64,000 bases of DNA from Candidatus Kaiserbacteria bacterium (GTDB taxonomy: Bacteria > Patescibacteriota > Minisyncoccia > Phycocordibacterales > UBA2100), in NCBI GenBank assembly GCA_023267655.1, contig JAHFMV010000001.1, positions 31,954 to 95,953 of the forward strand, read 5' to 3'. Shown in pieces: positions 1 through 48,670 of the stretch. A program made the position numbers and the translations under genes. The number at the start of each line of letters is the position of its first letter. The first letter of the stretch is position 1. The notes under the pieces were generated by a model. The model was not told where the DNA came from. It worked only from the letters and a program-made list of their open reading frames with translations, and did not search any database.

Positions 1-409
1 ATACATTCGCGAACACAACCTCACCAACGTCGAACTGCGTCCGTCAATCACCCACGACAAAGTACCTGAAGCCATAAACTCCTTTGACATCTGCATCAGC
101 TACCCGTTGAAATTTCGCGATGGTGCGACATCGCCGTTCAAAATCTACGAATATCTCGCCTGCGGAAAACCGGTCGTGTCCTCGGATTTGAAAAGCATGC
201 GCGAGGAGTTCGGTGACATCCTCGCGTACGCCGAAGCCGAAAATGCGGAGTCACTCGCACGTACGCTCAAGAAATTGATTGACAACCCCGCAGCCCGAAG
301 CGCGGCCGGCGAAGCCGGCCGCGCCTTCGTTGAGAACGGCAGAAGCTGGAAATCCGTCGCAGGAAAGATCATTGCTTTGTATGCGGTAATCGAACAACCG
401 AACAGGTAA
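1..409 (+). CDS. glycosyltransferase family 1/4, C-terminal part (5' end lies outside the window)
   Basis: Frame 2 is open from base 2. The translation ...VELRPSITHDKVPEAINSFDICISYPLKFRDGATSPFKIYEYLACGKPVVSSDL... carries the EX7E-type 'E-Y-L-A-C-G-K-P-V' signature of GT1/GT4 C-terminal Rossmann domains. Stop TAA at 407-409. Confidence 0.7.
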   Translation, partial: YIREHNLTNVELRPSITHDKVPEAINSFDICISYPLKFRDGATSPFKIYEYLACGKPVVSSDLKSMREEFGDILAYAEAENAESLARTLKKLIDNPAARSAAGEAGRAFVENGRSWKSVAGKIIALYAVIEQPNR

Positions 410-426
410 CTGGTCGTTCCACTCGC

Positions 427-807
427 TTATTCCATGAGCGGCCTCATATCGTCAAAGGGAGGTACATACGATGTACCATGTGCTTGGAGATATACATGCA
501 ATTTTTCTTCAAGCCGCGGAATATTTTGGTGGGCGATTTTCCATATTGTCCCAAGTTCGAGCATAAAATAATCATGCGAAATGATATTGCGTAGTCCGAC
601 AATCATCTTCCACGGTGCGTCGATCTCGTTCTGTGTATCCGCATCCAGTTTTTTCGCGAGTTCCCCGATGACTTGCAGCTGCATGATAACGGCGCTTTGC
701 GTCTTGGAGTCCGACAGAAATGCTGGTTCATCGAATCCCGTGATATATTCCGTGGCTTTCTTGCAGGCAGCTATGATGAGATCAATGTAGACATTATTGT
801 CTTTCAT
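427..807 (-). CDS. hepT: HepT-like (DUF86) toxin of a type VII HepT/MntA toxin-antitoxin pair
   Basis: 126-aa ORF with the R-x4-H-x-Y motif (GLRNIISHDYF). It overlaps the 3' end of the upstream nucleotidyltransferase gene by 14 nt. Confidence 0.75.
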   Translation of the reverse strand: MKDNNVYIDLIIAACKKATEYITGFDEPAFLSDSKTQSAVIMQLQVIGELAKKLDADTQNEIDAPWKMIVGLRNIISHDYFMLELGTIWKIAHQNIPRLEEKLHVYLQAHGTSYVPPFDDMRPLME

Positions 808-1090
808 AGATGATCTTCAAATCGCGTTTGATGTAGGGGCGCATTCGGGCGACAACCTGTGTATCCGGCACCAGATCTACTTCAACCCCCAGGATATTTT
901 TAAGGTCTTCCTCCGCCTCTTGCTTTTCAAGAAAACTAATCGGATGTCCTTCGTCAGAGAACAAGAAATCCGCATCACTATCGGCTCGATTGTCTCCTCG
1001 TGCGCGCGAACCGAAGACGCCAACCTTGCGGAAGCCGTACTTCTTGAATATTGGCCGCGCCTTCTCGACAAGTGAATCTAGATCTTCCAT
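794..1090 (-). CDS. mntA: MntA-like minimal nucleotidyltransferase antitoxin
   Basis: G-S-x9-13-D-x-D motif (GVFGSRARGDNRADSDADF). Start chosen at MEDLDSL (ATG 1088-1090). The longer ORF-track start at 1189 reads through the duplicated glycosyltransferase segment in antisense and is probably not real. Confidence 0.7.
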   Translation of the reverse strand: MEDLDSLVEKARPIFKKYGFRKVGVFGSRARGDNRADSDADFLFSDEGHPISFLEKQEAEEDLKNILGVEVDLVPDTQVVARMRPYIKRDLKIIYERQ

Positions 1091-1147
1091 ACCCACGATG
1101 GTAGCATATTTTTCGCCATATCGCTGTATGTGGTTAGGCAGGATTTT

Positions 1148-1240
1148 GCGGCCGGCGAAGCCGGCCGCGCCTTCGTCGAAAATGGCCACAGCTGGCGTGC
1201 GGTTGCAGAAAAGATTCTCGCACTCACGAGCCTCTTTTGA
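1148..1240 (+). repeat. decayed duplicate of the glycosyltransferase 3' end (gene remnant)
   Basis: 29 nt identical to 303-331 (gcggccggcgaagccggccgcgccttcgt), then about 70% identity for a further 55 nt. It translates in frame to AAGEAGRAFVENGHSWRAVAEKILALTSLF*, against AAGEAGRAFVENGRSWKSVAGKIIALYAV... in the intact gene. Confidence 0.7.
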
Positions 1241-1251
1241 AGTGGTAACGA

Positions 1252-1542
1252 CTATCGGCGTGGGGATCCGAATACTTTTTCTTCGAGTTTGCCGAGGCGG
1301 ACTTCGGTCTTTGTGTCCCGCAGCTGCTGCTCGATTGAGTTGACCTGGGTCTGGAGTGCATATACCTGATCTTTGGTGGCAAGTCCGTCCATTCGTGCGT
1401 CAATGCGGGCTACATCTTCTGCGACGGCGCCGAAGCCCTTCTCCATCCGCGCATCAATGCCGACAACATCTTCGGCAATCGTCTCTACGAGCTTCGTCAA
1501 TTTGTCGATTTTGTTCTCGAGGGTTGGTTTTGCGGATTTCAT
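1252..1542 (-). CDS. hypothetical small coiled-coil protein with an internal tandem repeat (DV.GIDARM x2)
   Basis: ORF with ATG at MKSAKPTLENKIDKL. The repeat is visible in both nucleotide and peptide sequence (…EDVVGIDARMEKGFGAVAEDVARIDARMDGL…). Confidence 0.45.
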   Translation of the reverse strand: MKSAKPTLENKIDKLTKLVETIAEDVVGIDARMEKGFGAVAEDVARIDARMDGLATKDQVYALQTQVNSIEQQLRDTKTEVRLGKLEEKVFGSPRR

Positions 1543-1561
1543 ATGCGGCAGTATAGCATGG

Positions 1562-1732
1562 TCATTCTTTGGCATTACGCACCGCTTCAATCTTCTTGAT
1601 AGTACGCTCAAGCGCTGCTCCGCACGTGTTGCAGAGGCGCGCCTGATTGAAAAGGTAGCCGCGGCCGACGCTGTAGCCAGATTTTCTGTCGGGAATTTTC
1701 TTATTGCAGAGATCGCAGAGTTCGATGTTCAT
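1562..1732 (-). CDS. 56-aa zinc-ribbon protein (CxxC…CxxC)
   Basis: MNIELCDLCNKKIPDRKSGYSVGRGYLFNQARLCNTCGAALERTIKKIEAVRNAKE*. It is absent from the ORF track because it is under 60 aa. It sits immediately upstream of, and overlaps, the coiled-coil gene. Confidence 0.45.
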   Translation of the reverse strand: MNIELCDLCNKKIPDRKSGYSVGRGYLFNQARLCNTCGAALERTIKKIEAVRNAKE

Positions 1733-1893
1733 CGTGTGATGTTATCACGCATCGATTGCGCGCAAGATTGCGGAGCTGCCTTGATTGTTGTCGATCATGC
1801 ACAGGACGAAAATGAGGTGCAAATGTGGGGTGAAGTACACCGAGCTCGCGCCCGGGCGGTTCAAGAATTTTTGGGAGGATTGAGGACAGCCGG

Positions 1894-3087
1894 TTAGCGG
1901 CGCGGGACGAAGAGCGTGCGCGGAAAGAATTCGTTGTACTCCTCCTCGTTGAACCACGCGCACTTGATGTCGAAGAGCTTGAGACCGGGCACGAGGCGGG
2001 TGAGTGCGAGCGCGTAGATCGCGAGCTGCGCGATCGGCTTGTTGGTTCGTGCGTCCGGTTTGTAATCCAAGATATGCACGGCGCCATTGCGCACCTGCAA
2101 GAAATCGATGTGACCGGTGATGGATCGGTCGGCCGCGCCGGTGCGCGGTGCGAGCTCGATGTGGTGCTGTTGCTCGAGCGCGGTGATGTCCGTCTCCGCT
2201 AGCCAGATCGGGATCTCGATTGCAACCGTGACGCTGTCGTTGGTGAGCATGAACTTCTGCAGCGTCTCGTGTCGCAACTTGTTGTTGCCAACGGCCGGAA
2301 TGATGAGGCCGGCAATGCGGGTCGCGATGTTCTCCTTGCGGTTGACGATCACGCGCGTGATGTCCGCGAAGTCAGGCTGCGCTTGCGACGCGCGGCCGCG
2401 ATCTTCCGCACGAAAGAGGTCGTGCGGACAAATCAGTGGCACGGCCTCCAAGAAATTCGCGAGCGATGCGAAGCGCGTGTCGCCGTGGCGCTTCTCGTCG
2501 AGTTCACCACGACGGAGAAATTCTAGCTTCGGCCGGTGGAACGCGTAGCCATAGACCTGGCGGTGATAGAGCTTGATCGACCGAAGCGTTTGCTCGGGAG
2601 GGAAGAGATGCCGGCCGCGATCACGCAACCGCGAATAGCTCATGAGGTCATGATGCTGCGCGAGCCAGCTCGAGAGCGTCGAGGGAGCGATGTGGCGACC
2701 GCTCTTGGATTTGATGCGCGCTACCGTGTCCTCCAGCGAGTAGCCAAGATTGTAGGTTGAGAGCGCATCGATCACGGTGCGCAGCGGGTAGGTTTTGTTT
2801 TTGAGCGCGGCGGGGCCGGGCGTGAAGACGCGCTTGCACGATGCGCATCGCCACAGTTGCACGATCTCCAACTTCTTCTTGCGCGTGCCACGGCGCGTGA
2901 CGACGTGGCTGCCGCAGTGCGGACAGGCGTCGGGTTGCTTTGCGGTGAGCGGGACGCGGGCGATGCGGGGGATGGGGGACATACTATTGTATGTGTTCAC
3001 CGTATCATGCAGATCACGGATTTTGAATGGAGAGCTCACGAATTCTGGACGCGTGAGCGCACGCGTTTTGGATGCGGAGCGGCTCAC
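1894..3087 (-). CDS. N-terminal zinc-ribbon plus C-terminal PD-(D/E)XK-like nuclease-fold protein (possibly mobile-element associated)
   Basis: Zn ribbon CPHCGSHVVTRRG…WRCASCKRVF. The C-terminal region GHIDFLQVRNGAVHILDYKPD fits a D…(D/E)xK nuclease motif. The true start may be the internal ATG at 2982 (MSPIPRIARV…). Confidence 0.5.
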   Translation of the reverse strand: MSRSASKTRALTRPEFVSSPFKIRDLHDTVNTYNSMSPIPRIARVPLTAKQPDACPHCGSHVVTRRGTRKKKLEIVQLWRCASCKRVFTPGPAALKNKTYPLRTVIDALSTYNLGYSLEDTVARIKSKSGRHIAPSTLSSWLAQHHDLMSYSRLRDRGRHLFPPEQTLRSIKLYHRQVYGYAFHRPKLEFLRRGELDEKRHGDTRFASLANFLEAVPLICPHDLFRAEDRGRASQAQPDFADITRVIVNRKENIATRIAGLIIPAVGNNKLRHETLQKFMLTNDSVTVAIEIPIWLAETDITALEQQHHIELAPRTGAADRSITGHIDFLQVRNGAVHILDYKPDARTNKPIAQLAIYALALTRLVPGLKLFDIKCAWFNEEEYNEFFPRTLFVPRR

Positions 3088-3132
3088 GGATATTGAGCAA
3101 GAGGAGGCGCGCGGAGCGCGCGGTTGAGCCGA

Positions 3133-3570
3133 CTATTGGGTGCCGGTGTCGGGGAGTTCCGCTGGCTCCGGAGGAGCGTTGCCGTCATGCGACGACTGCT
3201 CCGCGCCCTGCGGTTGCGGGTTGTCGTTTGCTGCGGGTGGGATGAGCACCAATGGTGTTGACGAGGATACATCTAATAGAGAGGACGGTGCGACTGGGGG
3301 TGTGCTGGTCGCGGCATCAACCGGTGTGGTAGTGGTTGGGGTGTCCGCATGCATCTCCAATGCGGATGAGCCGCTCGGCGCCCCCGCGCCGTCTCCTACC
3401 GGCGTTGTGATGCTGGCGGCTGATGATTGGCTTCCTCGAAACACCGCTTCGAATTGCTCCGGCGTGACGCAGGTCGAGCCGACGCAGAGTTCGTCGGTGT
3501 TCACGCGGCCGAAATTTCCCACCTTGGCGAAGAAGTCGGTGATGCCGTCTGAGGCGGAAACCGAGCCACG
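3133..3570 (-). CDS. C-terminal tail module homologous to the C-terminus of the 1959-aa giant protein; possibly a frameshifted continuation of the 613-aa gene
   Basis: The frame is open from 3570 with a GTG start at 3522. The peptide …GITDFFAKVGNFGRVNTDELCVGSTCVTPEQFEAV…GAPSGSSALEMHADT…PPAANDNPQP aligns with the giant's tail …GIGEVFARVFRAKDALCINDTCVNEDQLKAM…GAPGGSSALEIHADT…PPAANDNEPN. A 40-nt stretch of nucleotide near-identity lies at 3341-3380 versus 5731-5770. Confidence 0.4.
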   Translation of the reverse strand, partial: RGSVSASDGITDFFAKVGNFGRVNTDELCVGSTCVTPEQFEAVFRGSQSSAASITTPVGDGAGAPSGSSALEMHADTPTTTTPVDAATSTPPVAPSSLLDVSSSTPLVLIPPAANDNPQPQGAEQSSHDGNAPPEPAELPDTGTQ

Positions 3571-3613
3571 TCACCAAGGCAACTTTGCAGACCTGCAAAA
3601 ATGCGTCGCTGAC

Positions 3614-5455
3614 TCAACTACAGTGGGCGAGTGAAGCACGTGTTCTAGGACCGACGGCGCCGTAGCCGGTCGTCGTCGAGGAACCGCTTGCGACAATTTC
3701 TTTGGAACGTTGGTACATCTGGACAGCGGTTTGTGTCAGCCTTCCAAAATAGCCGGTGTCGTTGCCCGGAACTAGAAGATGTCGTCCAATGAGATGCCGT
3801 TGCAGCATCGCCACGTCTGTGCCACGGAACCCAACGGAAAGATTGCGCGCGAGCACCGGACACGCGCCTGCGAGTTGCGGGGGAGAGGAGGAAGCGAGGA
3901 CCTGAACATCTGGAATTGCCGGCGGCGGCATTGTCAGCGGCATCGGATTGGATGAAGGCGGCGTGGCAGAAGAGGGAGGCGTTGCAATGGCTGGAACGGC
4001 AGGCGTACCCGGAGTCGGGGTAACCGGGCTCGAAGGTGATGCGGGCGTCAGCGACCGCCACCTGGCGTCATACTCTGCTTGCATGGCCGCGATCGTATCG
4101 CGCACCGACTTCGTGCCATATGCGGTCGTGATCACGTCGTCATAGCGATACGGAAAAATGACGTACTTCGCGTGGTAGGGATGCGGATCGACTGAAGAGC
4201 TTGGGCGCAGTGTGATCGTGTGCAGGTTCGCAAACTTGATGACTCCGTCGTTCGCTCCTTGCGCGACAGTGTACGAAACGGAGCGCGTATCATTCTTGAG
4301 CGTCGGGTCATAAAACCACGCGATCGTAACGTCGTCAGAAGAAGGACCGGAAGCGTTCTCAAACGTGACCCAGCGGAGGTCGATCTGAGGGAAGCCGGAG
4401 TTGTACCCCTGGTTCATTTGGGTGATTGAAGGGATCTCGACTTGCGCGACACCGCTCGGCGATGGCGTGAAGTACCGGCGATAGCCGCTGGTAAAGTAGA
4501 AGGTCGGCAGTTCAAAGAAGCCATTGCGCGTCTTTGCTCCTGCTCCCTTGTTCTCGATGGTGATGTCGTATGCGAGATAGTTGTCAGAAGCAGAGACGGA
4601 CTGTGCGAGATGCAACGTGTCTGCAGCATTCCAAGGTCCCGCATAACTCGGCCCGTAGTCCCAGTTCATCATGGTCATGTCGCCAAAGTCGACGTGGTTT
4701 TGCGCAAGGCTACATGATTGATCTGCAAAGCCGTCGCAGGTGATCGTGGGTGCGTTCGAGCCGGTCGCGACGATCGGAACCATGCTCGTTTGGTTGCCGA
4801 CGTACGTGCAGAAAGCACCGGCTTGAGTCGGATTCCAGTAGCCCTGATGCACGTCGCATGAACTTGCGGTGCCAACTGCACGCGCCATAGCGTTCGCGTC
4901 AGCTTCGTCCTGATCGTGGAACGCGACTTGCAAAGCGGCGCCCATGTTGGCGTGCAGGGCGTTGTGCGGCATCGGATCTTGCAGGGAGGTGCCGACGGCA
5001 CGTTTGCTGTAAAACTCGTAGGTCGCTCCGGTGTTGCGGTCGAGCTTCGCGCTGTAGGCCGACTTGTCGATCGATATCAGACGGTTTTCCGAAAATGCTG
5101 AGTAGTAGGGATCAAGCGTCACGGCCGACGAAACAAGGGTGTCCTTGAAGTCGGGGGGCGGCGCGAGCGTCGTACAGTCAGCTCCAATATCCCACAAGCG
5201 TACCAAGATGTTGGAGCCGGGCGTGCCGACCGGAAGCGGCTTCTTGAAGAGACATAATCCCGATCCGTGATCGGCGAGCGTGCAGCGATTTTGGAAATCG
5301 TTGGCGTCGGTGCCTACGAACCACACGTCTGCCGTGACTGGCGTATTTGGGCAGCCTGGGTACTGCGCCGCGAGCTGTGCTCCCACTGAATTGGCTCGTT
5401 GGGACAACAGGACCGGTTCAATCCAAGATGCTTGTGCAAAGGACGAGGCCGGCAC
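3614..5455 (-). CDS. secreted protein with a C-terminal peptidoglycan-binding domain (PG_binding_1-like) and a Pro/Thr-rich linker
   Basis: 613-aa ORF. The C-terminal LQRHLIGRHLLVPGNDTGYFGRLTQTAVQMYQ matches the PGBD consensus. An N-terminal signal-peptide-like stretch (…GTLILSSVIGATLVVPASSFA|QA) lies upstream of the track's GTG start and has no canonical ATG/GTG/TTG. Confidence 0.7.
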   Translation of the reverse strand: MPASSFAQASWIEPVLLSQRANSVGAQLAAQYPGCPNTPVTADVWFVGTDANDFQNRCTLADHGSGLCLFKKPLPVGTPGSNILVRLWDIGADCTTLAPPPDFKDTLVSSAVTLDPYYSAFSENRLISIDKSAYSAKLDRNTGATYEFYSKRAVGTSLQDPMPHNALHANMGAALQVAFHDQDEADANAMARAVGTASSCDVHQGYWNPTQAGAFCTYVGNQTSMVPIVATGSNAPTITCDGFADQSCSLAQNHVDFGDMTMMNWDYGPSYAGPWNAADTLHLAQSVSASDNYLAYDITIENKGAGAKTRNGFFELPTFYFTSGYRRYFTPSPSGVAQVEIPSITQMNQGYNSGFPQIDLRWVTFENASGPSSDDVTIAWFYDPTLKNDTRSVSYTVAQGANDGVIKFANLHTITLRPSSSVDPHPYHAKYVIFPYRYDDVITTAYGTKSVRDTIAAMQAEYDARWRSLTPASPSSPVTPTPGTPAVPAIATPPSSATPPSSNPMPLTMPPPAIPDVQVLASSSPPQLAGACPVLARNLSVGFRGTDVAMLQRHLIGRHLLVPGNDTGYFGRLTQTAVQMYQRSKEIVASGSSTTTGYGAVGPRTRASLAHCS

Positions 5456-5537
5456 GACAAGTGTTGCGCCAATGACGGACGAAAGAATGAGAGTGCCGTG
5501 GGTCAGATACCGAATATGGTATCACGCATCCGGGCAC

Positions 5538-8500
5538 TTACTCGTTGACAGCTGTGGGTGTGGCCACATCGACGTTGGGCTCATTGTCGTTCGCGGCTGG
5601 TGGAACAGGTGGATCATTCTCCACTGCTCCCTCCTCGCTTCCCGCAGTGCCATCTCCGGTCTCGGTCGGAGTGGTGGGGCCGGTGCTGGTTGCGGTCGGG
5701 GAACTATCCGTCGACGGCGTCGTTGACGCGGTGTCCGCATGTATCTCCAATGCGGATGAGCCGCCGGGCGCTCCAGCTGATCCTCCCGGTCCTGTTGTTG
5801 CAGCGCCGGCGGCTGATGCTGAGAGCATCGCTTTGAGCTGGTCTTCATTGACGCATGTGTCGTTGATGCAGAGTGCATCCTTTGCGCGGAAGACGCGTGC
5901 AAATACTTCGCCGATGCCGTTGGTGGCGTCGGCGAGCCACTGTGTCAGCCGCGCAAAGAGGGAAGCGAAGAAGCGGCTGGTGAAGGTGCCTTCCGGGATT
6001 TCGGGCGTGGTAGTCGCGAGGTCTTCGAGTTTGAGGTTGAGGTCTTGGATCGCCTTTGCGAGGAGGGGCGTGATGCGGCCGTAGTCAACGCTCCACGGCG
6101 TCGAGGTTGCCCCGAGCGGGTCGATGCCGTTGTCGCCGTTGGTGGTCACGGCCCACGGGAAGACCTGTTGCAATTCCTGCGCGATGAAGCCCGTGGTCGT
6201 CGCGTGTGCCGGGTCGGTGATGAAGTCGAAGTCGCGCACCGTGAGACGCATCAGCGCGTCCAGCCCCAGCGTCGTCGTCGCGATGTTCTCTTTGATGCGG
6301 CGATCCGAAGAGGTGTTGTAAGAGACGATGCTTTCATTTTGCGCGATGTTGCCTGCCACCCCGCCCGAGGTATTTAGGAACAACACCGACGAGCCGCTAT
6401 AACTGGCACTCGTGCTCCTCATTGTAATGGCTTGTTGTGTGCTAGCGTTCCAACTTAAATATAATTTTGATCCATCGGAAGTTGCGCCGATGCCGACGTT
6501 GCCGGCGCTGTTCGCGTTGAGCGAAAGTGTCGACCCTTCAATTGCAAGTGGCTTATATACGGCTCCCGCACGGTCGTAAGCGCGGACCTGGCCTGACGTT
6601 CCGTCCCACGTAAGCTCCGTGCCGACACCGTTCGTTGGTGCCACCTGACTCGTCGCGCGTATCGTGCCAAAGACGTCCAATTTTCCGGTTGGAGTAGTTG
6701 TGCCGATGCCGACGTTGCCGCCGCCCGTGACAACAAAATGCGTGGCGGTCGAGGAGCCGATCACAAATTCAGGGACGCCACTGCCGAGGGCATTTGGATT
6801 GACGGAGAGGAGGGCCCACGGACTTGTCGTGCCGATGCCGACGTTGCCGGCGTTCAATGTCATGACATCGCCACCGGTGCGGGTGTAGAGACGGATTTGA
6901 TCCGTTTGCGACGTGGGCCGGTAAATTCCTCCCGCTTCGAGACTATCCGACTGGAACGACAGTGCACTCAAAGATGCGTTAGGTGAATTTATAACTGAAT
7001 ACGTATTGCCTGTGCTCGAGACCACTAATGTCTTGGCGGGCGACGTGGTGCCGATGCCGACGTTGCCGCTGGAGTTAACGAGGAAGTAGGTGGCCGTGCT
7101 GGAGCCGATGGCGAAGGAGTTGATGCCTGCGGCTGCATGCACGCTCAGCTGCGCCCACGGGGACGTGGTGGCTATTCCGAATTTCCCGGCGCTGTATGCC
7201 GAGCCGTCGTTGTTCACCTGGAAGAGAGTAGTCGACGCGGAGTTCGCGACGAGGAATGATTGCGTTGAAGCCGATGTGTCAGAGCCCCAGAGCGTGAGTT
7301 TAGAGTATGGGGTGGAGGTGCCGATGCCGACGAGGTCGGTGCTATCGGCGAGGAATGATTGTGTGTTGTCGTTTTGCCAGCCGCCGGCGGTGGCGTTTAC
7401 GGGTGCGATGAGGGCGCCGGTGAAGTAGGTCGCAGCTGCAGTACCGTCAATTATTGTCCCGTCAGTAGTGCCACGTGCTTCGATATAGTCCGTTGTGCCG
7501 TTCATATCAACAACGGCTGTTGCCATGCCCGTGGCGTCAAAACTACTGCCGCGATAACGGCCAACCCCAACTGGGATCGCATTTTTGTATATTGATCCAT
7601 CGCAGTATGCGACTGAAACGGACTGGCCAAAATCTCCGCAACGAACCGAGAGAGTGATGATGTACTTGCCTGGGACTGTCGGCGTGAATTTGTTCGAGGC
7701 GAAATTGTTATTGGTGTCGAATGTCTCTGTGGACCAGGTCAAAGCAGTGTCGACGTTCGCCGACACCGTCTGATCCGTCCCGTTCTTGTTCACACTAAAA
7801 CTCGGCCCACTGGTAGCGGTCGTGACGCCCTGCCACGTGCCGCCGGAGTTCTTGAACTCGAGCATGCCCGCGTTGTCGCGGAAGCCGTAGCCCGAGGTGC
7901 CTTCGGTCGCGCCGAAGTTCAGATAACCGCTTGCCGGGAAAAGCGCGTTGCCGCTCGCCGTGAACGTCGTCGTCGCCGTGCCGCCGAAGTATGCGCTGTA
8001 TGCAGAGAGCATTGTCGTCGAAGCTCCGCCGTTGAAGAGCGTGAGCGTTGTTGTTGCGCTCGTCCCTGCGACCGCGTGGGTAAAGGGATCGCCGCCCGAG
8101 CCGGAGCCGCATGCGGACGCATTTGCCGAGACCGTGCCGTCGCTACCCACTTGCAAGCAGCGCGTTCCCGTCCCGCCTGTGTTCGAGATCACGAGCGCCG
8201 TCGTCGATGCGGTCGTAGCGGAGAGCATCGTTGTCGATGCGAAGGGGATTGAAAGTGCCGTGCCCGCGGGTGCGGCGAAGTTGATGGTGAGATTTGATCC
8301 GCCAACGAGTGCACCGGCAGTTCCGGAGAACGAAAGCGCGGTGCCGGCCGACAAGGAACTTGTCGCGACCGATTGATACGCAGTGCTACCGCCGTACAAG
8401 AGTTGTGAGACGGGAGCGGTCGTGGTGCCGGTACCACCTTTCGCGATTGTGAGCGTTCCCGTGATTGTCGAGAGCGTGGAGGTTGCGATCCACGACGGCT

Positions 8501-11417: not shown

Positions 11418-11889
11418 GATTATTCGGAAAGCCTAGGTATTGCCTAGAATTTCCGTCATTGGCTCATGATAGCGTGCCACCGTCTGGCAGTGTGCGGTTA
11501 TCCACTTTCAAGTGGAGCGCGGGATGGTATCGCGCTAGCTGGTACAGCGGAGCCGGAGTCCACATCGTGCATACCGTATGCGCCGATTTTCCTCGGAAAT
11601 GAGTGTCACCACGACCATCACGCGAAGCCTTCAGTCGATGTGGCTTGTGATCTCGACCAGCGGTTCTCGAGCGGCTTCTATCGCCAGCTTATGCGCACTT
11701 TACATCCGAGATTCGTTGTTCATATATACCCGGAATAGCTAGCATTTACATGATATCTCGGTATCTCGGGTCATAGTACGGGAGGCGGCCAAATTGCGGT
11801 GCACAACGCCATAACGCAATTGAGTGCGCCAGCGCTGGAGCGACACGCGCTCGTCGATTTGGAGTTGGCGGAAGTTACACTGTAGAGAT

Positions 11890-11930
11890 AAAGCAGGTGC
11901 ACGTTTTCCAGATGACGAGCGCCTTCATGG
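11890..11930 (+). repeat. decayed duplicate of the 3' end of the monooxygenase gene (12744-12790)
   Basis: Identical 21-mer gcacgttttccagatgacgag at 11898-11918 and 12748-12768, with about 85% identity over about 36 bp. The reverse translation MKALVIWKTCTCF… compares with GMDALVIWKTCIYLITNMF in the intact gene. Confidence 0.6.
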
Positions 11931-11955
11931 TGCGAAATCATGGTATAATCGCGAA

Positions 11956-12243
11956 ATGCGCATTACGGAAGCACAGGCACGGCTGCTGAAAGAAGGGGTC
12001 CGCGAATACCTGCCACAGGCGAGTGTGTATCTGTTCGGGTCGCGTGCGGACGATGCGAAGCGTGGCGGCGACATTGACGTGCTTGTCGTAGGGGAGCGGC
12101 CGCTTCAACCTTTAGAGAGCAGCCGCGTCAAGGCGAGATTTTATGAACGTTTCGGAGAGCAGAAAATCGACATTGTGAGTTTCGCAGAGGGCGAACATAC
12201 CACGTTCCGCGATCTGATAGAATCCGAGGCGGTGCCTCTCTGA
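11956..12243 (+). CDS. mntA: MntA-like nucleotidyltransferase antitoxin (second copy)
   Basis: MRITEAQARLLKEGVREYLPQASVYLFGSRADDAKRGGDIDVLVVGE carries the GS…D.D motif. It is preceded by TGgTATAAT at 11941-11949, only 6 nt before the ATG, which implies a leaderless mRNA. Confidence 0.7.
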   Translation: MRITEAQARLLKEGVREYLPQASVYLFGSRADDAKRGGDIDVLVVGERPLQPLESSRVKARFYERFGEQKIDIVSFAEGEHTTFRDLIESEAVPL

Positions 12244-12244
12244 A

Positions 12245-12700: not shown

Positions 12701-12707
12701 GCGAAAA

Positions 12708-19600: not shown

Positions 19601-19726
19601 ATGAAAGTTATCAAATCACTCTCGTTCACCCTTTTTGTCTTCGGACTCCTCGGCTGGCTCTACATCGTCTTGAATTCCGCGATACACCCGTGGACTTTGG
19701 CGATGCCACTTTACACACTGCGTTAG
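19601..19726 (+). CDS. 41-aa single-TM peptide, paralog of 22985-23203
   Basis: MKVIKSLSFTLFVFGLLGWLYIVLNSAIHPWTLAMPLYTLR*. It shares about 80% nucleotide identity over about 85 bp with the other copy. Confidence 0.4.
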   Translation: MKVIKSLSFTLFVFGLLGWLYIVLNSAIHPWTLAMPLYTLR

Positions 19727-21076: not shown

Positions 21077-21142
21077 GGACATCAAGCCTATCATTACGCT
21101 GCGATTTTGCGGAAATACCACCGATGCTATAGTGCGGGCACT

Positions 21143-21847: not shown

Positions 21848-21934
21848 CCTTTTATGCATCCTACGATAGGTTTCGAGCGAGACTTCTTCTTGTTGCAGGA
21901 GATCAGGGTGAAAAAGAAAGCCAAGGGGCCGATC

Positions 21935-38390: not shown

Positions 38391-38402
38391 AAGGGTAGGT
38401 AT

Positions 38403-38426
38403 TAGCCACTAGGGTTTAGCCACTAG
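38403..38426 (-). promoter_or_regulatory. tandem CTAGTGGCTA motif in the rnj 5' UTR (shared with groES and groEL)
   Basis: In gene sense: ccctagtggctaaaccctagtggctaa, 12 nt upstream of the rnj ATG. Confidence 0.45.
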
Positions 38427-38517
38427 GGAAATACGATTTAATAATGCGATTAATAATTTTTTCTAATAATTTTGTAACAATTGAATTTTCTAGAAGCTAG
38501 AAGCTTGTCGCTAGAAG

Positions 38518-41452: not shown

Positions 41453-41483
41453 CTAGTGGCTAAACCCTAGTGGCTAGTGGCTA
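41453..41483 (+). promoter_or_regulatory. three CTAGTGGCTA units in the groES 5' UTR
   Basis: ctagtggctaaaccctagtggctagtggcta, ending 5 nt before the groES ATG. Confidence 0.45.
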
Positions 41484-41488
41484 TTTTT

Positions 41489-41863
41489 ATGGCAAAAAAC
41501 AAGAAGAAAGCAAAAAAGTCGAAGAAACCAGTCAAGAAAACTATCCGCAAAGTGGTCGCACAATTTGGCATTCAGCCGGTCGGCGACAAGGTGCTCGTGA
41601 GACCGCAAGAGGTGGAACAGAAAACTCCTTCTGGCCTTATCATCCCGGACACCGTTAAAAAGGACAAAATGATGACGGGCGTTGTCGTTGCCGTCGGCAC
41701 CGGCCGCGTGAGCGAAACAGGCGCACGCATTCCACTTTCTGTTTCTGAAGGCGACGTGATTTATTTCAGCCGCGGATGGGACGAGGAGGGCAGCAAATTT
41801 CCGTGGAAAGGCGAAGACTATTATCTCGTGTCGGAAAGCGACATCAAAGCAGTTATTAATTGA
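41489..41863 (+). CDS. groES: co-chaperonin GroES with a ~25-aa lysine-rich N-terminal extension
   Basis: MAKNKKKAKKSKKPVKKTIRKVVAQF-GIQPVGDKVLVRP… (the canonical GroES begins at I-x-P-L-G-D-R-V-L-V); ends GEDYYLVSESDIKAVIN. Confidence 0.85.
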   Translation: MAKNKKKAKKSKKPVKKTIRKVVAQFGIQPVGDKVLVRPQEVEQKTPSGLIIPDTVKKDKMMTGVVVAVGTGRVSETGARIPLSVSEGDVIYFSRGWDEEGSKFPWKGEDYYLVSESDIKAVIN

Positions 41864-41869
41864 ATTTCC

Positions 41870-43567
<1,698 letters not shown>

Positions 43568-43625: not shown

Positions 43626-43632
43626 GTAGGCA

Positions 43633-46218
43633 ATGGCATCCGCTCTTCGCGTAGGTCTTTTTGCGTCGTTACTGTTCGTCGCTTGTGTAATCGCGTATCC
43701 GACTATTTCGCGCGCGACCGGCACCCAAGCAGATCAGCAATGCCAGCCCGGCGGGAAAATTGGCCAGAAGTGCACTGACAACACTCATGGATACAAGACA
43801 CAAGGAAAGTGCGCGTATGTGTACGTCTGCAAAGCAGACAGTGTCCCCAGCAACGAACCACCGCTGTGTACCGGCGGCGGGAAAGACTGTCCCGTTGGCG
43901 GACCGTCACCATCAAATTTCAATCCGTACCCCAAGGCGATCAAAATTGCATCGGGTTCGCCATCCATCCCGACTTCGAGCATCTCTGATCTTGAAAAAGG
44001 AGTCCTTGGTGCTGCATTTGCATCTGATGAAGCGACGCCGACCGACCTTGCAGATTTAAGTGCCTCCGCCAACGTGTCGTTGAAAACGATATTGGATGCG
44101 CAAGGAGAAGACTCGAGCGATGCGCTCGCATTCGTCCCCGAATCATTTCAAAAAGAAACGAGCACGCTTTTTGCAGGACTGCGCGAAAATGCGGTAACGC
44201 TCGGACCCGGGCAAAAGCCAACCGTCGCCGTGGATGCGTTAGGAAATGTGCGTCTCGCGTTTCCATCGAATGATGGCACATCGTTCGGTGCGACTTTCGA
44301 TGCATCCAGCGATGAAAATTCTACCGGCATATCTTTTGCAGACGATCTGATACTCGCCGCCACCAATGCACCGCGGCATTTCGCGCTCGGTTTCTATCAC
44401 GCGGGACAAGCCGCGCTCATGGTTGTGCTTGCGGATTTTTCGAGTGCGCGGGCAGAGTGGAATGTGGCGACCGAAAATTTGACGTCCGCAGCCGAGGATT
44501 TGTGGAATGTACTTCGCGCACTGTGGGAGATGCTCGTGCAGTTTATCCAGCGGTCCGTGACAGCCTATGCACAAGAGGACGATGCAAATGCCGATTGCAC
44601 ACCAGGTGAGTATCGATACGAATACACGAAACGCGACGCTCCGTGTGACAAAGAGAAATGCATGTTGCACGCGCCATGTGCCGGCTCATTTGCGCGTGGC
44701 ATCTGCGCGAGCGAAGGGAAATGCAACGCAACGAGCGTGAAAATATGCGATTCAAATTCGGGAACGTGTTCGTGGACAACGCCGCAACAAACAGCGCTCC
44801 CCGGCAGTACCGCAACGCCAAGCACCCCGCTTCCGCCGCCGGTGACTGGCGATCAGCCGCTTCCGATCAGCCCCGAATTACAAAATGCATTTTCAGATAA
44901 CGCGAAACAACAGGCAGACGCGCAGGCGCGCATCGACGCGGCACAGCAAAAATTGATGGAAGCGTTCAATAATTTGCAAAATGATCCGCAGAATTATTCA
45001 GCGCGATTTGACGACGTACGGAGCGCACAAAAAGAACTGTTAGATGCGCAGCGTGCGCTCAATCCGACACTCAAAGATTACCTGCTGCAAAATGTCGCGC
45101 CGCGCATGACGCCGACGGAACTTCTGCCTGACGGGAATTCAGCACCGATTATGCGGTATGAATGGATCAACAATCTCGGTTCAGCGCCTGCCCCGTTCGA
45201 GGCCGTAGGCTCTCAAACGGGGTTCGCGCCGTTTAAGGTGGCGCAATTAGGAGACGGCCCACCGATTCCGCTGTTGTCCGACGAAGCGCTCCAGAATGAG
45301 CTCGAACTGCGTAAGCTTTCGATCGACGCGGCAAATGAACTTCGCGGCGGCATGTATGCACCGAATGGCGTCAGTCCATTTTCCTTTGCACCACCCGGTT
45401 CGCTCACTATGCCGCCGGAAGAGCCGCTCACGGTGACAAACTATTCGTTTGATTCGATCAGCGATGCGGTTACGGCTGGCGTGAAGTGTCTCTTTGGCAC
45501 GTGTCCGACGCCGCTTTCTAATTCAGTGCCATTTGGCGGTTTAAATTCCATTGCAGATTTCGGACTGACCGAGCCGTTTGTCGTGAGCGGTAATTTAACC
45601 GAGCCACAGACGCCACCATGGACAGGCGAGACCTCGCTTACCGAACCCGAATTGAAAAAGCTGCTTGAGCAAGAGGGAAAGGGTCCGCCGCTTCCTACAG
45701 CGCCCACACCGACCGAGACCGCGCAACCTTCACCGAAGCCGCAAAATCCTCAGACACAAACGCCGCAGCCGACTCCACAACCACAAACTCCAGAGCGACC
45801 GGCAACACCAAGCGCCGCTCCGTCAGGTAAAACGAATGCGGGCACGGGCGGATTTTCATTACAGTCGTTGCTGCCATCACTCTGGAGCGTTCTCGCGAAT
45901 CTTTTTAACTATCTTCGAGACGGAAATGCGGCAAATACCAATCCTTCAACCCCTCAAAATCCTCCAGCACCCGCCCCCACCGCATCGCTCTCAATCGATC
46001 CGTCGCGCATTTCAATAGGCACCGTCACGCGCCTCATGTGGTCGTGTACGAATGCCGATTCCAGCGTCATCTATCTTTCCGATGGCACCGCCTATATTCG
46101 CGACGGTGTAAACGGCACTGCGACCACCTCACCGCTTTCTGTCACCACCACTTTCCGCCTCGTCTGCTCGGGCCACGGCGGCTCCGCCGAAAATTCTTCG
46201 ACGGTCACGGTGCAATAA
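43633..46218 (+). CDS. secreted 861-aa Cys-rich / Pro-rich protein with a C-terminal Ig-like domain shared with the 5021-aa giant
   Basis: Signal peptide MASALRVGLFASLLFVACVIAYPTISRATG. Cys-rich N-terminal modules. The C-terminal ~85 aa SLSIDPSRISIGTVTRLMWSCTNADSSVIYLSDGTAYIRDG…TFRLVCSGHGGSAENSSTVTVQ parallels …VTLTAKPTSVDSGKTAQLSWSGENIANCTIYGPG…FGIACSGSDGTSITSATVTVKV in the giant. Confidence 0.7.
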   Translation: MASALRVGLFASLLFVACVIAYPTISRATGTQADQQCQPGGKIGQKCTDNTHGYKTQGKCAYVYVCKADSVPSNEPPLCTGGGKDCPVGGPSPSNFNPYPKAIKIASGSPSIPTSSISDLEKGVLGAAFASDEATPTDLADLSASANVSLKTILDAQGEDSSDALAFVPESFQKETSTLFAGLRENAVTLGPGQKPTVAVDALGNVRLAFPSNDGTSFGATFDASSDENSTGISFADDLILAATNAPRHFALGFYHAGQAALMVVLADFSSARAEWNVATENLTSAAEDLWNVLRALWEMLVQFIQRSVTAYAQEDDANADCTPGEYRYEYTKRDAPCDKEKCMLHAPCAGSFARGICASEGKCNATSVKICDSNSGTCSWTTPQQTALPGSTATPSTPLPPPVTGDQPLPISPELQNAFSDNAKQQADAQARIDAAQQKLMEAFNNLQNDPQNYSARFDDVRSAQKELLDAQRALNPTLKDYLLQNVAPRMTPTELLPDGNSAPIMRYEWINNLGSAPAPFEAVGSQTGFAPFKVAQLGDGPPIPLLSDEALQNELELRKLSIDAANELRGGMYAPNGVSPFSFAPPGSLTMPPEEPLTVTNYSFDSISDAVTAGVKCLFGTCPTPLSNSVPFGGLNSIADFGLTEPFVVSGNLTEPQTPPWTGETSLTEPELKKLLEQEGKGPPLPTAPTPTETAQPSPKPQNPQTQTPQPTPQPQTPERPATPSAAPSGKTNAGTGGFSLQSLLPSLWSVLANLFNYLRDGNAANTNPSTPQNPPAPAPTASLSIDPSRISIGTVTRLMWSCTNADSSVIYLSDGTAYIRDGVNGTATTSPLSVTTTFRLVCSGHGGSAENSSTVTVQ

Positions 46219-46273
46219 TATACGTGTAGTGACAATGTATTGACATACCACGTAACGAGTATATACTCGCCAT

Positions 46274-46546
46274 ATGACCACTATTCAAATTCGTATCGAC
46301 GAAAAGACGAAACGCAAGGCGAGCAAAGTATTTGGCAAAATGGGGCTCAACGTTTCGAGCGGTATCAAGGTGTATCTTACCCGTGTCGCACAAGACGAAG
46401 CGATGCCTTTTGTGGTACGTACTGAAAATGGCTACACCCAGGAAGAAGAGCGACAGTTGATCAAGGAAGCAGAGTATGCGGAGAAACATGGTAAGCGATA
46501 CACCTCTGCCCGCGAGGCTCTGGACGATATTTTACGTAAGAAATAA
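46274..46546 (+). CDS. dinJ: RelB/DinJ-family antitoxin
   Basis: MTTIQIRIDEKTKRKASKVFGKMGLNVSSGIKVYL… (IRID.E.K..A, GL..S.AI..FL pattern). The promoter TTGACA-N16-TATACT lies directly upstream. Confidence 0.7.
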   Translation: MTTIQIRIDEKTKRKASKVFGKMGLNVSSGIKVYLTRVAQDEAMPFVVRTENGYTQEEERQLIKEAEYAEKHGKRYTSAREALDDILRKK

Positions 46547-46553
46547 AGAAATT

Positions 46554-46835
46554 ATGTATTCGCTGGTTTTTGCGGCAAAAGCGAAGCGATCATTACGGAA
46601 ATATAAAAAGAGCGGGATATTTCCACAGGAAAAATTTGAGGCGGCGGTCGCTCTCTTGTGTGTGGGGAAACCTTTGCCGCCCTCATACGATGATCATGCC
46701 CTCAGAGGTGAGCTGGTGAGTTTTCGAGAATTCCACCTCGGGTATGACCTTCTGGTCAAATATCGGCGGCGTGCTGAATTACAAGTCATTAACATCGTTG
46801 CGATAGGAACCCATAGCGAACTTTTCGGCGGTTGA
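46554..46835 (+). CDS. yafQ: YafQ/RelE-family mRNA interferase toxin
   Basis: …LLCVGKPLPPSYDDHALRGELVSFREFHLGYDLLVKYRRRAELQVINIVAIGTHSELF matches YafQ blocks (PLP..Y.DH.L.G…R.LHI..D.LL.Y…GTHS.LF). Confidence 0.7.
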   Translation: MYSLVFAAKAKRSLRKYKKSGIFPQEKFEAAVALLCVGKPLPPSYDDHALRGELVSFREFHLGYDLLVKYRRRAELQVINIVAIGTHSELFGG

Positions 46836-46845
46836 GCTCGTCCAA

Positions 46846-47118
46846 GCGCTCTCAACATCCCCATGAAGCTGCGCCATTTTGCGGCGCAAAAACGTACTCC
46901 ACCCCGTGAGATAAGAGTGTAAAAATTTTGTAAAAAAATAAGCGGATTGATATACCCAAAATGTGGCGGTCTAAGGCAATCGTCGCTATCTCACGGGGTA
47001 TAATACGAGTAATGATAGGCGCCAACAGGGCTACAGCCCGCTCCGCTCGCCCGAATAGGGCCGCGTATTTTCGTGTGGGCACAACTCTCTTTTTTGCTGT
47101 TTATTCCGCGTTCATTTC
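46846..47118 (+). repeat. copy A of the giant-gene 5' leader/start module (promoter plus signal-peptide start), with two internal insertions and a truncated ORF
   Basis: gcgctctcaacatcc…gcgccattttgcggcgcaaaaacgtact…tataatacgagtaATGataggcgccaacaggg…ggccgcgtattttcgtgtgggcacaactctcttttttgctgttt aligns with 48532-48670. It encodes MIGANRA…AAYFRVGTTLFFAVYSAFISRF and then a stop. Confidence 0.7.
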
Positions 47119-47160
47119 TCGATTCGATGTTGATAGCTTTGCATGGTATACTCATAGTCA

Positions 47161-47391
47161 ATGACTAAGACGCTCGAAATAATCCTTGAAAAAGCATCCG
47201 CATGGCCAAAGGAAGCCCAAGATGAGCTCGTGCGCGCTGCCAAACAGATCGAAGAAGCGCAAAGCGCGAGTGCGTATACGGCGACAAACGAAGAACTCAA
47301 GGCGATAGACGAAGGGTTATCGCAAATGAGGCGTGGAGAGTTTGCTTCTAAGAAAGAAGTCGATGCATTTTTCAAAAGTCGCAAGCCATGA
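47161..47391 (+). CDS. putative antitoxin (addiction-module component) paired with the downstream RelE/ParE toxin
   Basis: 76 aa, acidic, helical; ATGA overlap with the toxin gene. It is preceded by TGgTATACT with an 8-nt spacer before the ATG. Confidence 0.5.
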   Translation: MTKTLEIILEKASAWPKEAQDELVRAAKQIEEAQSASAYTATNEELKAIDEGLSQMRRGEFASKKEVDAFFKSRKP

Positions 47392-47738
47392 GAGTTGAGT
47401 ATTCGTCGCGTGCACTTAGTGACGTGCGCGCGATTTTCGCGTATACCTATGGACGTAATCCAACGGCAGCCCGGCGGGTGAAGGTGTATATCAAGCAGGC
47501 GGCAACCAAACTGGGCGATATGCCGGGGAAGAGTGTAACGCTTAAACAGCGTCCTGGTGTCAGTCGAATTGTGCTGACACGCTACCCATACGCGTTGTAT
47601 TATGCGACCGAGGCTGACACGGTCGTTATACTCCATATTCGGACAGTGCCCGAAAACTACCAAAAACAAAGGATTTTTAAGTCGAGCTTTCATGCGGCTC
47701 TCAACACCTTCCCGAAGGTGCGCCATTTTGCGGCATAA
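47388..47738 (+). CDS. RelE/ParE-family toxin
   Basis: …RYPYALYYATEADTVVILHIRTVPEN… matches the RelE/ParE C-terminal block (Y.I.Y….V.IL.I.H). The ORF reads on into repeat copy B. Confidence 0.65.
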   Translation: MRVEYSSRALSDVRAIFAYTYGRNPTAARRVKVYIKQAATKLGDMPGKSVTLKQRPGVSRIVLTRYPYALYYATEADTVVILHIRTVPENYQKQRIFKSSFHAALNTFPKVRHFAA

Positions 47739-47790
47739 AAACGTACTACAATACGAGTAATGATAGGCGCGAACAGGGCCGCGTATTTTC
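47694..47790 (+). repeat. copy B of the giant-gene 5' leader/start module (truncated ORF MIGANRAAYFLIW…*)
   Basis: The 70-mer gcgccattttgcggcataaaaacgtactacaatacgagtaatgataggcgcgaacagggccgcgtatttt at 47719-47788 is identical to 48557-48626. Confidence 0.8.
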
Positions 47791-47820
47791 TCATATGGAA
47801 AAGCAGTGCGTCGATGTTCT

Positions 47821-48189
47821 CTAGTTCTTGTTTCCGAAAGTCCGAATACGGCCCGGTTCAATGATGAAGCCGTTGCCTCGCAAAGATTCCGGAGTCTGAC
47901 GTCCGAAGAATTCCTTACATTCGCGGATCAGGGACTCTCGACTAAAATTCTCAACATATACGATGATGAGACCTGCCGTGTCAGCGGGATCGAATGTACG
48001 GATGTCACCGAAACCATGATCGGAAGTAAACAGGATCAATTTGTGCTCACGTGCATGCTGAAAGATCGTCGGATCTGGTGCCGTGGCCAGTTCGATGTCG
48101 CCGGTGTACGTCAGATCAATGTTGGAAAGTTCTCGCAGCGCGTCCCGCAAATCGCGGTTGATACACTGGTCCGCGAGGACGTGGAGCAT
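47821..48189 (-). CDS. DUF5615-family PIN-like (Mut7-C-like) nuclease, toxin partner of DUF433
   Basis: MLHVLADQCINRDLRDALRELS…LILFTSDHGFGDI… matches the DUF5615 pattern. Confidence 0.6.
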   Translation of the reverse strand: MLHVLADQCINRDLRDALRELSNIDLTYTGDIELATAPDPTIFQHAREHKLILFTSDHGFGDIRTFDPADTAGLIIVYVENFSRESLIRECKEFFGRQTPESLRGNGFIIEPGRIRTFGNKN

Positions 48190-48195
48190 ACCGCG

Positions 48196-48429
48196 TTAGG
48201 CGTGCGCAACACGGGCGAGAATCTGAGCGGGGCTCTCAAGAACGCCGCTCGCGAACTCGATTGCGGCATCGACGTCTTCTTTAGTAATGCCTTCATATTG
48301 TCCGGGAATTTCGTCGAGAGCATAACCGGCGCGGATAAGATTGAGAATATCGGCAACCGCGATGCGCGTCCCACGGATCGTAGGTTTCCCAAAGCGAACG
48401 TCTCCATTGATGGTGATGCGTTTGTTCAT
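48196..48429 (-). CDS. DUF433-family protein, antitoxin partner of DUF5615
   Basis: ITINGDVRFGKPTIRGTRIAVADILNLIRAGYALDEIPGQYEGITKEDVDAAIEFA matches the DUF433 consensus. Confidence 0.65.
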   Translation of the reverse strand: MNKRITINGDVRFGKPTIRGTRIAVADILNLIRAGYALDEIPGQYEGITKEDVDAAIEFASGVLESPAQILARVAHA

Positions 48430-48531
48430 GGCAGGAAGTATAGCATGCGCTCAGGTGTACAACAAAGGCTTCTCAGCTGTGTGGTTGGACAATGGAGACT
48501 TAAACAGATACAAAATCCGACATTCGGGATA

Positions 48532-48670
48532 ACGCTCTCAACACCCCACAGAACCTGCGCCATTTTGCGGCATAAAAACGTACTACAATACGAGTAATGA
48601 TAGGCGCGAACAGGGCCGCGTATTTTTGTGTGGGTGCAACTCTCTTTTTTGCTGTTTTTTGTGCATTCAT
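48532..48670 (+). promoter_or_regulatory. native 5' leader/promoter and start of the 5021-aa gene (copy C of the triplicated module)
   Basis: TTTTGCGG…TACAAT then acgagta then ATG at 48597. The -10-like hexamer sits only 7 nt from the ATG, which implies a leaderless or near-leaderless transcript. Confidence 0.55.

Follow-up and report, generated by a model that had tools for sequence, protein, structure and literature searches.

How does a toxin-antitoxin (TA) module come to lie between two copies of the end of a neighboring gene? The question is raised by a 64-kb stretch of DNA from Candidatus Kaiserbacteria (contig JAHFMV010000001.1; "the window", positions 1-64,000), in which five TA modules are found and four of the five are enclosed by direct repeats, 43-139 nt long, of the terminus of an adjacent gene; the remaining RelB/YafQ module is without a flanking repeat. 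The layout is constant. A gene with an intact terminus is followed by the cargo and then by a displaced terminus, and one copy always completes an intact open reading frame (ORF). Self-BLAST of the window, with repeats internal to the two giant genes excluded, returned only five sets of dispersed direct repeats, all of which are of the gene-terminus type. The repeats are read here as scars of homology-anchored, out-of-register recombination with DNA of diverged relatives, taken up in linear form, and this reading is given about an even chance of being correct.

A preliminary description of the sequence had reported four repeat-flanked modules, with repeats of roughly 40-140 bp, one copy intact and the other decaying, and these observations hold. 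The repeats encode the end of a glycosyltransferase (GT), the end of a flavin adenine dinucleotide (FAD) oxidoreductase and the start of a giant protein, and thus derive from gene termini and not from an intergenic repeat family. No integrase or transposase domain occurs in any large ORF of the 64-kb window (a copy elsewhere in the genome is possible), and there are no inverted repeats at the ends of the cassettes, also as first described. With lengths of 43-139 nt, identities of 81-94% and sequences that are completely different from site to site, the repeats cannot be target-site duplications, which are identical and only 2-14 bp long; a transposon origin fails on length, on divergence and on the missing transposase and terminal inverted repeats.

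At the first site, the GT gene has an intact 3' end (302-409, + strand; copy A, with AAGEAGRAFVENGRSWKSVAGKIIALYAVIEQPNR preceding the stop) that starts inside a strong palindrome, and a displaced remnant of this end (AAGEAGRAFVENGHSWRAVAEKILALTSLF and stop) is found at 1148-1240 (+), in frame and with residues that match the family consensus. The repeat (302-369 versus 1148-1215) is 81% identical over 68 nt, the protein-level match reaches 1249, and about the last 35 residues are represented; the first 29 nt (302-330/1148-1176) are identical and the remainder is approximately 67% identical. Between the copies lies TA1, composed of a HepT toxin (427-807, -; PF01934, E 2.6e-22), whose stop codon is 17 nt from that of the convergent GT gene, and an MntA nucleotidyltransferase antitoxin (794-1090, -; PF01909; the longest ORF reaches a GTG at 1189). 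At the second site, the FAD-oxidoreductase gene (12708-14057) has its intact 3' end at 12708-12779 (-) and a displaced remnant (MKALVIWKTCTCFISTV and stop) at 11860-11929 (-), with 84% identity over 43 nt (11887-11929 versus 12735-12777) that represents about the last 23 residues. Here the cargo is TA2, a MNT (MntA-like) antitoxin (11956-12243, +) with its own TGnTATAAT-type -10 at 11940-11948, and a 151-aa HEPN toxin (12245-12700, +) with a RNEIAHEY motif and a stop codon 7 nt from that of the convergent FAD gene.

The third locus lies upstream of the giant, 5021-aa gene (48597-63662), where the repeated element, R, consists of the promoter and first 10-25 codons (signal peptide) of this gene and is present in three copies. 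R1 (46848-47117, +; promoter and codons 1-25) is the oldest displaced copy, split and decayed, with a 30-nt internal insertion. R2 (47697-47789, +; displaced promoter and codons 1-10) is 94% identical to R3, the last 71 nt being identical. R3 (48534-48672, +) comprises the predicted functional promoter (-10 TACAAT) and signal-peptide codons of the 5021-aa gene itself. Between the giant gene and an 861-aa gene upstream lie three modules: RelB (46274-46546) and YafQ (46554-46835), both + and recognized by Pfam, with a TTGACA-16-TATACT promoter at 46240-46267; an antitoxin (47161-47391) and ParE (47388-47738), both +, ParE being recognized by Pfam and its ORF running into R2 (47697-47738); and a DUF5615 PIN-like toxin (47821-48189) with a DUF433 antitoxin (48196-48429), both - and recognized by Pfam.

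Did the second copy of each terminus arise in place, or was it brought in? In-place duplication, in which template switching or staggered-cut insertion would have copied the resident end and the spare copy then decayed, has in its favor that the repeats are direct and close together, that the GT site starts in a strong palindrome (z -5.8) of the kind classically regarded as a slippage or breakage hotspot, and that R1 contains a slippage-type internal duplication. The divergence between copies is of another character. Mismatches by codon position are [5,3,11] for the GT end and [12,8,21] for a repeat of a small membrane-protein gene (described below), with 20 synonymous codon changes in the two together and a combined third-position excess of p = 0.001. 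At five positions that differ from the intact copy, the GT remnant has residues found in the family (GHSWRAVAEKIL), and its agreement with a 30-homologue consensus is no worse than that of the intact copy. The third-position mismatches and the family residues in the remnant indicate that each copy had a history as a functional gene end before the two were brought side by side. In the older or shorter pairs (the FAD end, and R1 versus R3) there is no third-position bias, and R1 contains insertions, which fits decay after displacement.

The GC-rich palindrome at the GT site (GCGGCCGGC-GAA-GCCGGCCGC; 295-335 / 1148-1176; about 15 bp in the intact GT copy; z -5.8) may be a breakage or crossover hotspot. 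Palindromes were considered as a general feature of the junctions and rejected, only the GT site being significant (FAD site, z -0.99; other sites not significant).

More direct information comes from a before-and-after pair of strains at the giant-gene locus of relatives. L004 and L003/L011 are 97.6-99.3% identical over the upstream 5 kb, and L004 represents the empty site, with a single R running straight into its giant gene. In L003/L011 the resident R is 99.3% identical to that of L004 (in a 1127-nt alignment containing R) and truncated near codon 36-40; after it come RelB/YafQ, another copy of the small-gene promoter with 80% identity to the resident copy, a gene of the IS30 family, a terminator and a second R. 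This second R is only 81.6% identical to L004, as compared to the 99.3% of the resident copy, and on that evidence it was not copied in place but is a diverged allele of this locus, imported and set in tandem with the resident one. Past the second R, the giant-gene allele of L011 is 76% identical to that of L004 for 347 nt, and over the next >4 kb the two alleles have no similarity at the nucleotide level. The order within the inserted block (RelB/YafQ, small-gene promoter, terminator, R) is that of the native locus in L018, with a homologous RelB promoter, and the block begins just downstream of the expected end of the donor's 861-type gene. The imported segment is thus both diverged and contiguous with a homologous anchor, as in homology-facilitated illegitimate recombination (HFIR). 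L004/L011 also show a different outcome at this hotspot, an insertion-deletion in which MntA/HepT has replaced the 5' half of the resident RelB without leaving a repeat. A homologue search with the N-terminus of the L011 giant allele, for donor or recipient, gave no match.

Divergence of 18% in the new copy of L003/L011, against 0.7-2.4% between the strains, together with the concentration of mismatches at third positions and the consensus residues kept by remnants, makes in-place duplication highly improbable; it also leaves the source of the cargo unexplained. The replication template switch offered in the preliminary description is accordingly set aside, since the copies differ mainly at synonymous positions and the new copy of the L011/L004 pair is a diverged allele.

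Two other events were noted in these strains. L003/L011 have lost 490 bp, including a YafQ fragment, between 22-nt direct repeats (ACATTTTGGGG[A/G]AGAA; L004 3843-4333 versus L003 12370-12391), which represents TA erosion by short-repeat deletion. The IS30-family gene is inside the imported block of L003/L011 and not at its boundaries, and is frameshifted in L011.

Tandem copies could also be produced by an assembler that joined strain variants of one locus end to end, and contigs do end in or beside repeats (L002 at 47159; L003 inside its second R). Nevertheless, independent assemblies in ENA and Logan, made from several runs, contain the window sequence, including the repeat-cassette junctions, with 100% identity. 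The site 1 (GT) repeat pair is covered by L005 and L007 and the site 2 (FAD) pair by L009 and L010; the stretch from R1 to R3 is covered by L001 only; and both R copies are spanned in L011, L012 and L013, from three Hainich samples. Chimerism is unlikely because junctions are identical across assemblers and runs, and with both R copies spanned in L011-L013, the chance that the repeats are an artefact of this kind is next to negligible. With regard to the origin of the DNA, the closest named homologue of the GT is from Candidatus Kaiserbacteria, the sole match among GTDB species representatives is a Patescibacteria metagenome-assembled genome from the Hainich aquifer, and the housekeeping genes and relatives place the window in a groundwater lineage of Patescibacteria. 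Exact-protein look-ups with window proteins returned the same strain only; hence there is no empty-site relative for the window's own events.

The giant-gene locus also bears on whether a recombinase might be at work. In L017 the interval between the 861-aa and giant genes is empty save for a small peptide gene, in L018 it contains one RelB/YafQ, and in L004 and L003/L011 it contains MntA/HepT, a RelB remnant, DUF5615/DUF433 and RelB/YafQ; the orthologue of the window's RelB/YafQ persists as the remnant, at the equivalent position in L004/L011. To judge from these gene orders, the locus is a cross-species TA hotspot. R is about 80% conserved between species whose 861-aa proteins share only 44-49% identity. 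Its left edge (GCTCTCAACA) is constant and directly follows the terminator of the upstream gene in L004, L011, L017 and L018, the motif being present also in L019.

This constant boundary, found in all copies and five lineages, and the placement of three cassettes head-to-tail upstream of one gene, would be expected of a site-specific recombinase supplied in trans from elsewhere in the genome (an integron-like enzyme, or an integrase of the tyrosine or serine type) that used conserved termini as att sites. In the empty loci L017, L018 and L004, however, the conserved promoter region begins at this same boundary, and the left edge of R is therefore best taken as the start of the giant gene's promoter region. 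R has no significant single-strand fold (z -1.08 and +0.89 versus shuffled sequence) and, as read from its sequence, no RYYYAAC/GTTRRRY cores. Each cassette has its own promoter; the repeats differ between sites; the copies end on the right at different codons (10, 25, 36-40); and no integrase is found in the 64 kb. A trans-acting recombinase is therefore only faintly probable, and a comparison to integron cassette arrays fails in that the large ORFs include no IntI, R shows no attC-like fold or cores, and the cassettes carry promoters. Folding of R as an attC-like site was rejected, as it folds no better than shuffled sequence. A structured RNA or tRNA as the insertion target was likewise rejected; Rfam (at gathering thresholds) and ARAGORN gave no match in the window.

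Is the process specific to TA modules, as the preliminary description implied? Six flanked units occur in the window, and two of the six are non-TA, with the same topology around a 613-aa gene and around a four-gene folate/F420 block, so the cargo can be other than a TA module. The 613-aa protein, with a peptidoglycan-binding domain (3614-5455, -), lies between the intact 3' end of a 1959-aa gene (5538-5960, -; Peptidase_S74 chaperone domain at aa 1704-1757) and a displaced C-terminal remnant of a 1959-aa-type gene (3133-3560, -; 44% identical to aa 1831-1945). A 129-aa ORF in the remnant (3133-3522) matches the C-terminus of the 1959-aa protein with 44% identity over 124 aa (E 1e-12), and a block of remnant DNA (3340-3387) is 90% identical to the intact end. 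The second unit consists of DHPS (-), HPPK (-), F420-glutamyl ligase (CofE; +) and a RimK-like ATP-grasp protein (+) at 19734-22912; it is preceded by a displaced 5' remnant of a small membrane-protein gene (19601-19726, +; 41 codons, then a stop) and followed by the intact gene (22985-23203, +; 72 aa), whose 5' end is 80% identical to 19622-19706. Flanking is found for 4/5 TA units and 2/~37 other units in the window (Fisher p = 6e-4), although, with the events gathered in hotspots, the units are not independent trials. TA modules may plausibly predominate as cargo because they are common in flexible DNA beside conserved genes, and addiction would plausibly select against loss by recombination between the flanking repeats.

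One of the hotspots lies between the GT and FAD genes. Three relatives share the order DUF2206 / GT (forward), FAD (reverse), polysaccharide synthase (reverse) / GH5 (forward), and in these the convergent GT and FAD genes overlap by 4-29 bp. In the window the two genes are separated by a lineage-specific region of 12.3 kb (410-12707) that contains, from left to right, TA1, the GT-end remnant, a core, the FAD-end remnant and TA2; the core consists of six genes or gene fragments with a GC content of 0.58-0.63, as compared to 0.50-0.53 in the flanks, and the 613-aa event is nested within the region. TA1 and TA2 thus appear as the two outer edges of one inserted region. In place of the four independent sites first proposed there are two hotspots, with TA1 and TA2 bracketing a single 12.3-kb insertion. 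The repeat spacings at the edges are 846 (302/1148) and 848 nt (11887/12735), in mirror-image layouts; because the lengths of the inserts differ (738 versus 778 nt), the near-equality is probably coincidental. That the two MNT/HEPN cassettes are copies of one element was rejected, as their proteins are unrelated beyond motifs and the inserts differ in length as given. Also within the region is a 397-aa protein (1894-3087, -) with a PD-(D/E)XK (Cas4/RecB-like) nuclease domain and an IS1/IS1595-type zinc ribbon. In a Kaiserbacteria-type relative (L028, 19625-20196), the interval from GH5 to DsbD/thioredoxin is occupied by other genes (dehydrogenases, a helix-turn-helix gene and 119-aa gene pair), which suggests a further variable region.

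By what route would a foreign terminus and its cargo be placed in tandem with the resident one? In the mechanism favored here, DNA of a diverged relative would enter the cell, probably as a linear fragment by natural competence, and would pair with the chromosome via a conserved gene that acts as the homologous anchor. The fragment would bring the donor's own end or start of the anchor gene and the adjacent cargo, often a TA operon with its own promoter. The second joint, presumably illegitimate, would be made out of register, inside the terminus of the resident gene and not beyond it; the donor terminus would then complete the gene, and the resident terminus would be moved to the far side of the cargo, there to decay. 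A second joint beyond the anchor would give an insertion and deletion with no repeat. Such a process would be driven by host recombination, and would be neither encoded by TA modules nor specific to them. Entry as linear DNA is favored because the one event that can be reconstructed brought in an entire locus running on into a foreign allele, because the insertion-deletion of MntA/HepT over RelB left no repeat, an outcome that a circle cannot produce, and because the homology in the repeats is short and diverged, while gene bodies offer kilobase-scale anchors. It is favored also by the report that Patescibacteria retain homologous-recombination and competence genes (PMC12455944).

Several observations weigh against this mechanism. 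In experiments HFIR usually gives deletions, and duplication of a homologous segment is the hallmark of a single crossover with circular DNA, at least in the E. coli work treated in PMC3240628; here six units show duplication, and a single one, MntA/HepT over RelB, shows deletion. Blocks of perfect identity stand beside two junctions (29 nt at 302-330/1148-1176 and 71 nt in R2/R3), as a homologous crossover leaves. The window's own events have no donor or empty-site relative. L004 and the resident R of L003/L011 differ at 8 positions, every one of them within the final ~50 nt, so that L004 is perhaps not the exact recipient. Lastly, the mirror-image edges formed by TA1 and TA2 (846 and 848 nt) are not explained by two independent events.

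The model of the preliminary description was that of small circles, each made up of a TA cassette and a captured gene terminus, which integrate by a Campbell-type single crossover. On such a model, recombination between the repeats could release the circle again. The terminus-cargo-terminus arrangement is exactly the product of insertion-duplication, and duplications of 109-950 bp of a homologous locus have been obtained from single crossovers of circular molecules (PMC3240628). Crossovers could have taken place in the stretches of 22-71 nt of perfect identity that lie within or next to the repeats, and an imported diverged copy fits a circle as well as it fits a linear fragment. Set against these points, the homology available is only 43-108 nt at 81-84% identity, and the end of the 1959-aa gene is 44% identical at the amino-acid level. 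The import in L011 is a whole native locus and not a minimal cassette, and the foreign giant-gene allele that extends more than 4 kb past the new copy would need an extra, coincident event. Among the cargoes is a 3.2-kb unit with four genes of housekeeping type, a circle cannot give rise to the insertion-deletion observed at the giant-gene hotspot, and natural competence brings in linear single strands. Integration from circles is thus a possible but doubtful account.

In sum, homology-guided integration, as first proposed, is the right class of explanation because the cargo arrived with a foreign copy of the gene end, and it is the small-circle variant that is put in doubt by the L011 block (a whole locus with a foreign allele of more than 4 kb). 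The broader proposal, in which TA modules of Patescibacteria would be recombinase-free, homology-addressed cassettes that carry a captured host-gene end, cycle between circular and integrated forms and capture the displaced promoter or terminator, appears improbable; if true, it would give TA modules a general means of spreading in organisms that lack classical mobile elements. The idea that TA modules spread in this way next to new host genes is doubtful, since the process only moves them between homologous loci of relatives. With either variant, linear or circular, an existing adjacency of gene and TA module is transferred, and the origin of that adjacency is unexplained.

All five modules in the window are genuine members of type II or type VII TA families, in agreement with the earlier assignment. 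Pfam matches were obtained for HepT with NTP_transf_2, RelB with YafQ, ParE, and DUF433 with DUF5615, and the TA2 toxin was assigned via its family. The 151-aa TA2 partner has no direct match in Pfam, but belongs to a family (666 representatives) with a R-x4-H-x-Y motif in which R111, N112 and H116 are nearly invariant and Y118 is invariant. Members match HepT-like (27/51) or NTase_sub_bind (20), and the family profile recovers HI0074 and solved HEPN toxins; the protein is predicted to be a HEPN toxin through its family only. The 76-aa partner of ParE has no family match, and is labelled an antitoxin from position and the overlapping stop/start alone. The TA cassettes carry their own promoter-like sites. 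Carriage of the modules by phage was rejected on negative results in IMG/VR, which contained no relatives of HepT1 or of the PD-(D/E)XK protein and no match to the R pattern.

A number of additional features were noted around the giant gene. The 5021-aa gene is probably leaderless, as the TACAAT ends 7 nt before the ATG (48580-48600), an arrangement seen also in L004, L011, L017, L018 and L019. R1 is split by a 97-nt insert (46902-46998) with perfect 12-bp terminal inverted repeats (CCCCGTGAGATA...TATCTCACGGGG) that folds well (z -4.1) and may be an element resembling miniature inverted-repeat transposable elements or a long hairpin. It has no second copy in the window, and a scan of 21 loci allowed an interior of 40-70 nt, that of the element being 73 nt. 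From the displaced giant-gene start in R1, a 67-aa ORF (46961-47164, +) extends to an ATGA that overlaps the start of the ParE antitoxin (47161), and transcription of the antitoxin/ParE cassette may start at the displaced promoter, the remnant then serving as a leader. The C-terminal ~120 aa of the 861-aa protein (45814-46215) are homologous to a C-terminal-proximal region of the 5021-aa protein (63006-63341; 31%, E 1e-10), such that the genes that bracket the TA array share a domain. Elsewhere in the window, short repeats of a CTAG-rich family (CTAGTGGCTAG...) are found in either orientation at 38396-38444, 41453-41487 and 41853-41904, around groES and downstream of the SBP gene, and in L018 the family recurs directly after YafQ (about 7930-7970).

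With the repeats read as recombination scars, displaced gene termini provide a signature of integrase-independent gene gain that is easy to search for. The event can be oriented from the signature, since the imported terminus is the one joined to the gene, and the divergence between the two copies is a rough measure of donor distance. For the streamlined, uncultured Patescibacteria, with few mobile elements, it would allow metagenomes to be used directly to test what share of the flexible genome, including TA modules, has entered by host recombination with relatives' DNA, and likewise where the hotspots are. Should TA cargo prove to be over-represented between such repeats genome-wide, this would be field evidence that addiction stabilizes DNA against repeat-mediated deletion. 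In the full-text literature that was covered, which is incomplete, no account was found of gene-terminus repeats as a recurring feature, either around TA modules or in Patescibacteria.

How, then, does the arrangement compare to known systems? In the orphan C-terminal/immunity modules of rhs and cdiA genes, a new 3' end with adjacent gene(s) displaces the old end, which is left downstream, and arrays build up. The site with the 1959-aa gene, the 613-aa gene and the 129-aa fragment looks similar, but there is no toxin/immunity logic in the window's displaced ends, 5' ends are displaced as well, and a glycosyltransferase, an oxidoreductase and a small membrane protein are among the products of the genes concerned. 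When integrase-bearing islands insert into the 3' ends of genes, the incoming DNA supplies a substitute terminus and the old one stays at the far junction. The target gene in the window similarly stays intact by way of the incoming terminus, with the old terminus at the far junction; unlike such islands, the sites lack an integrase and a shared att core, and the cargo is as small as 0.74 kb. The Microcystis TA module described as "fenced by direct repeats" (PMC7935541) was rejected as a precedent, the repeats in that account being identical 152-bp intergenic sequences with inverted repeats, and not gene ends.

Closer to the present case are the TA "islets" of Photorhabdus (PMC13617665), which are small chromosomal TA loci without mobile-element genes, patchy in distribution, eroding by deletion and pseudogenization, and thought to move by homologous recombination at flanking core genes. 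In that account, they involve in-register double crossovers or res-site palindromes and no displaced gene-terminus repeats. Campbell-type insertion-duplication (PMC3240628) likewise leaves the cargo between two homologous copies, one donor-derived and one recipient-derived, as is found here; the homologies in the window are, however, far shorter and more diverged than the experimental ones, and in L011 the downstream gene is a foreign allele. In HFIR, as reported for S. pneumoniae, A. baylyi and P. stutzeri (PMC3240628), a conserved-gene anchor carries in adjacent foreign DNA with no recombinase or mobile-element functions, the illegitimate joint being made at 3-10 bp of microhomology and usually deleting recipient DNA. 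The insertion-deletion of MntA/HepT over RelB in L004/L011 is the same outcome, whereas the units described here differ from the classical products, in which recipient DNA is deleted, in that the resident terminus is kept as a direct repeat.

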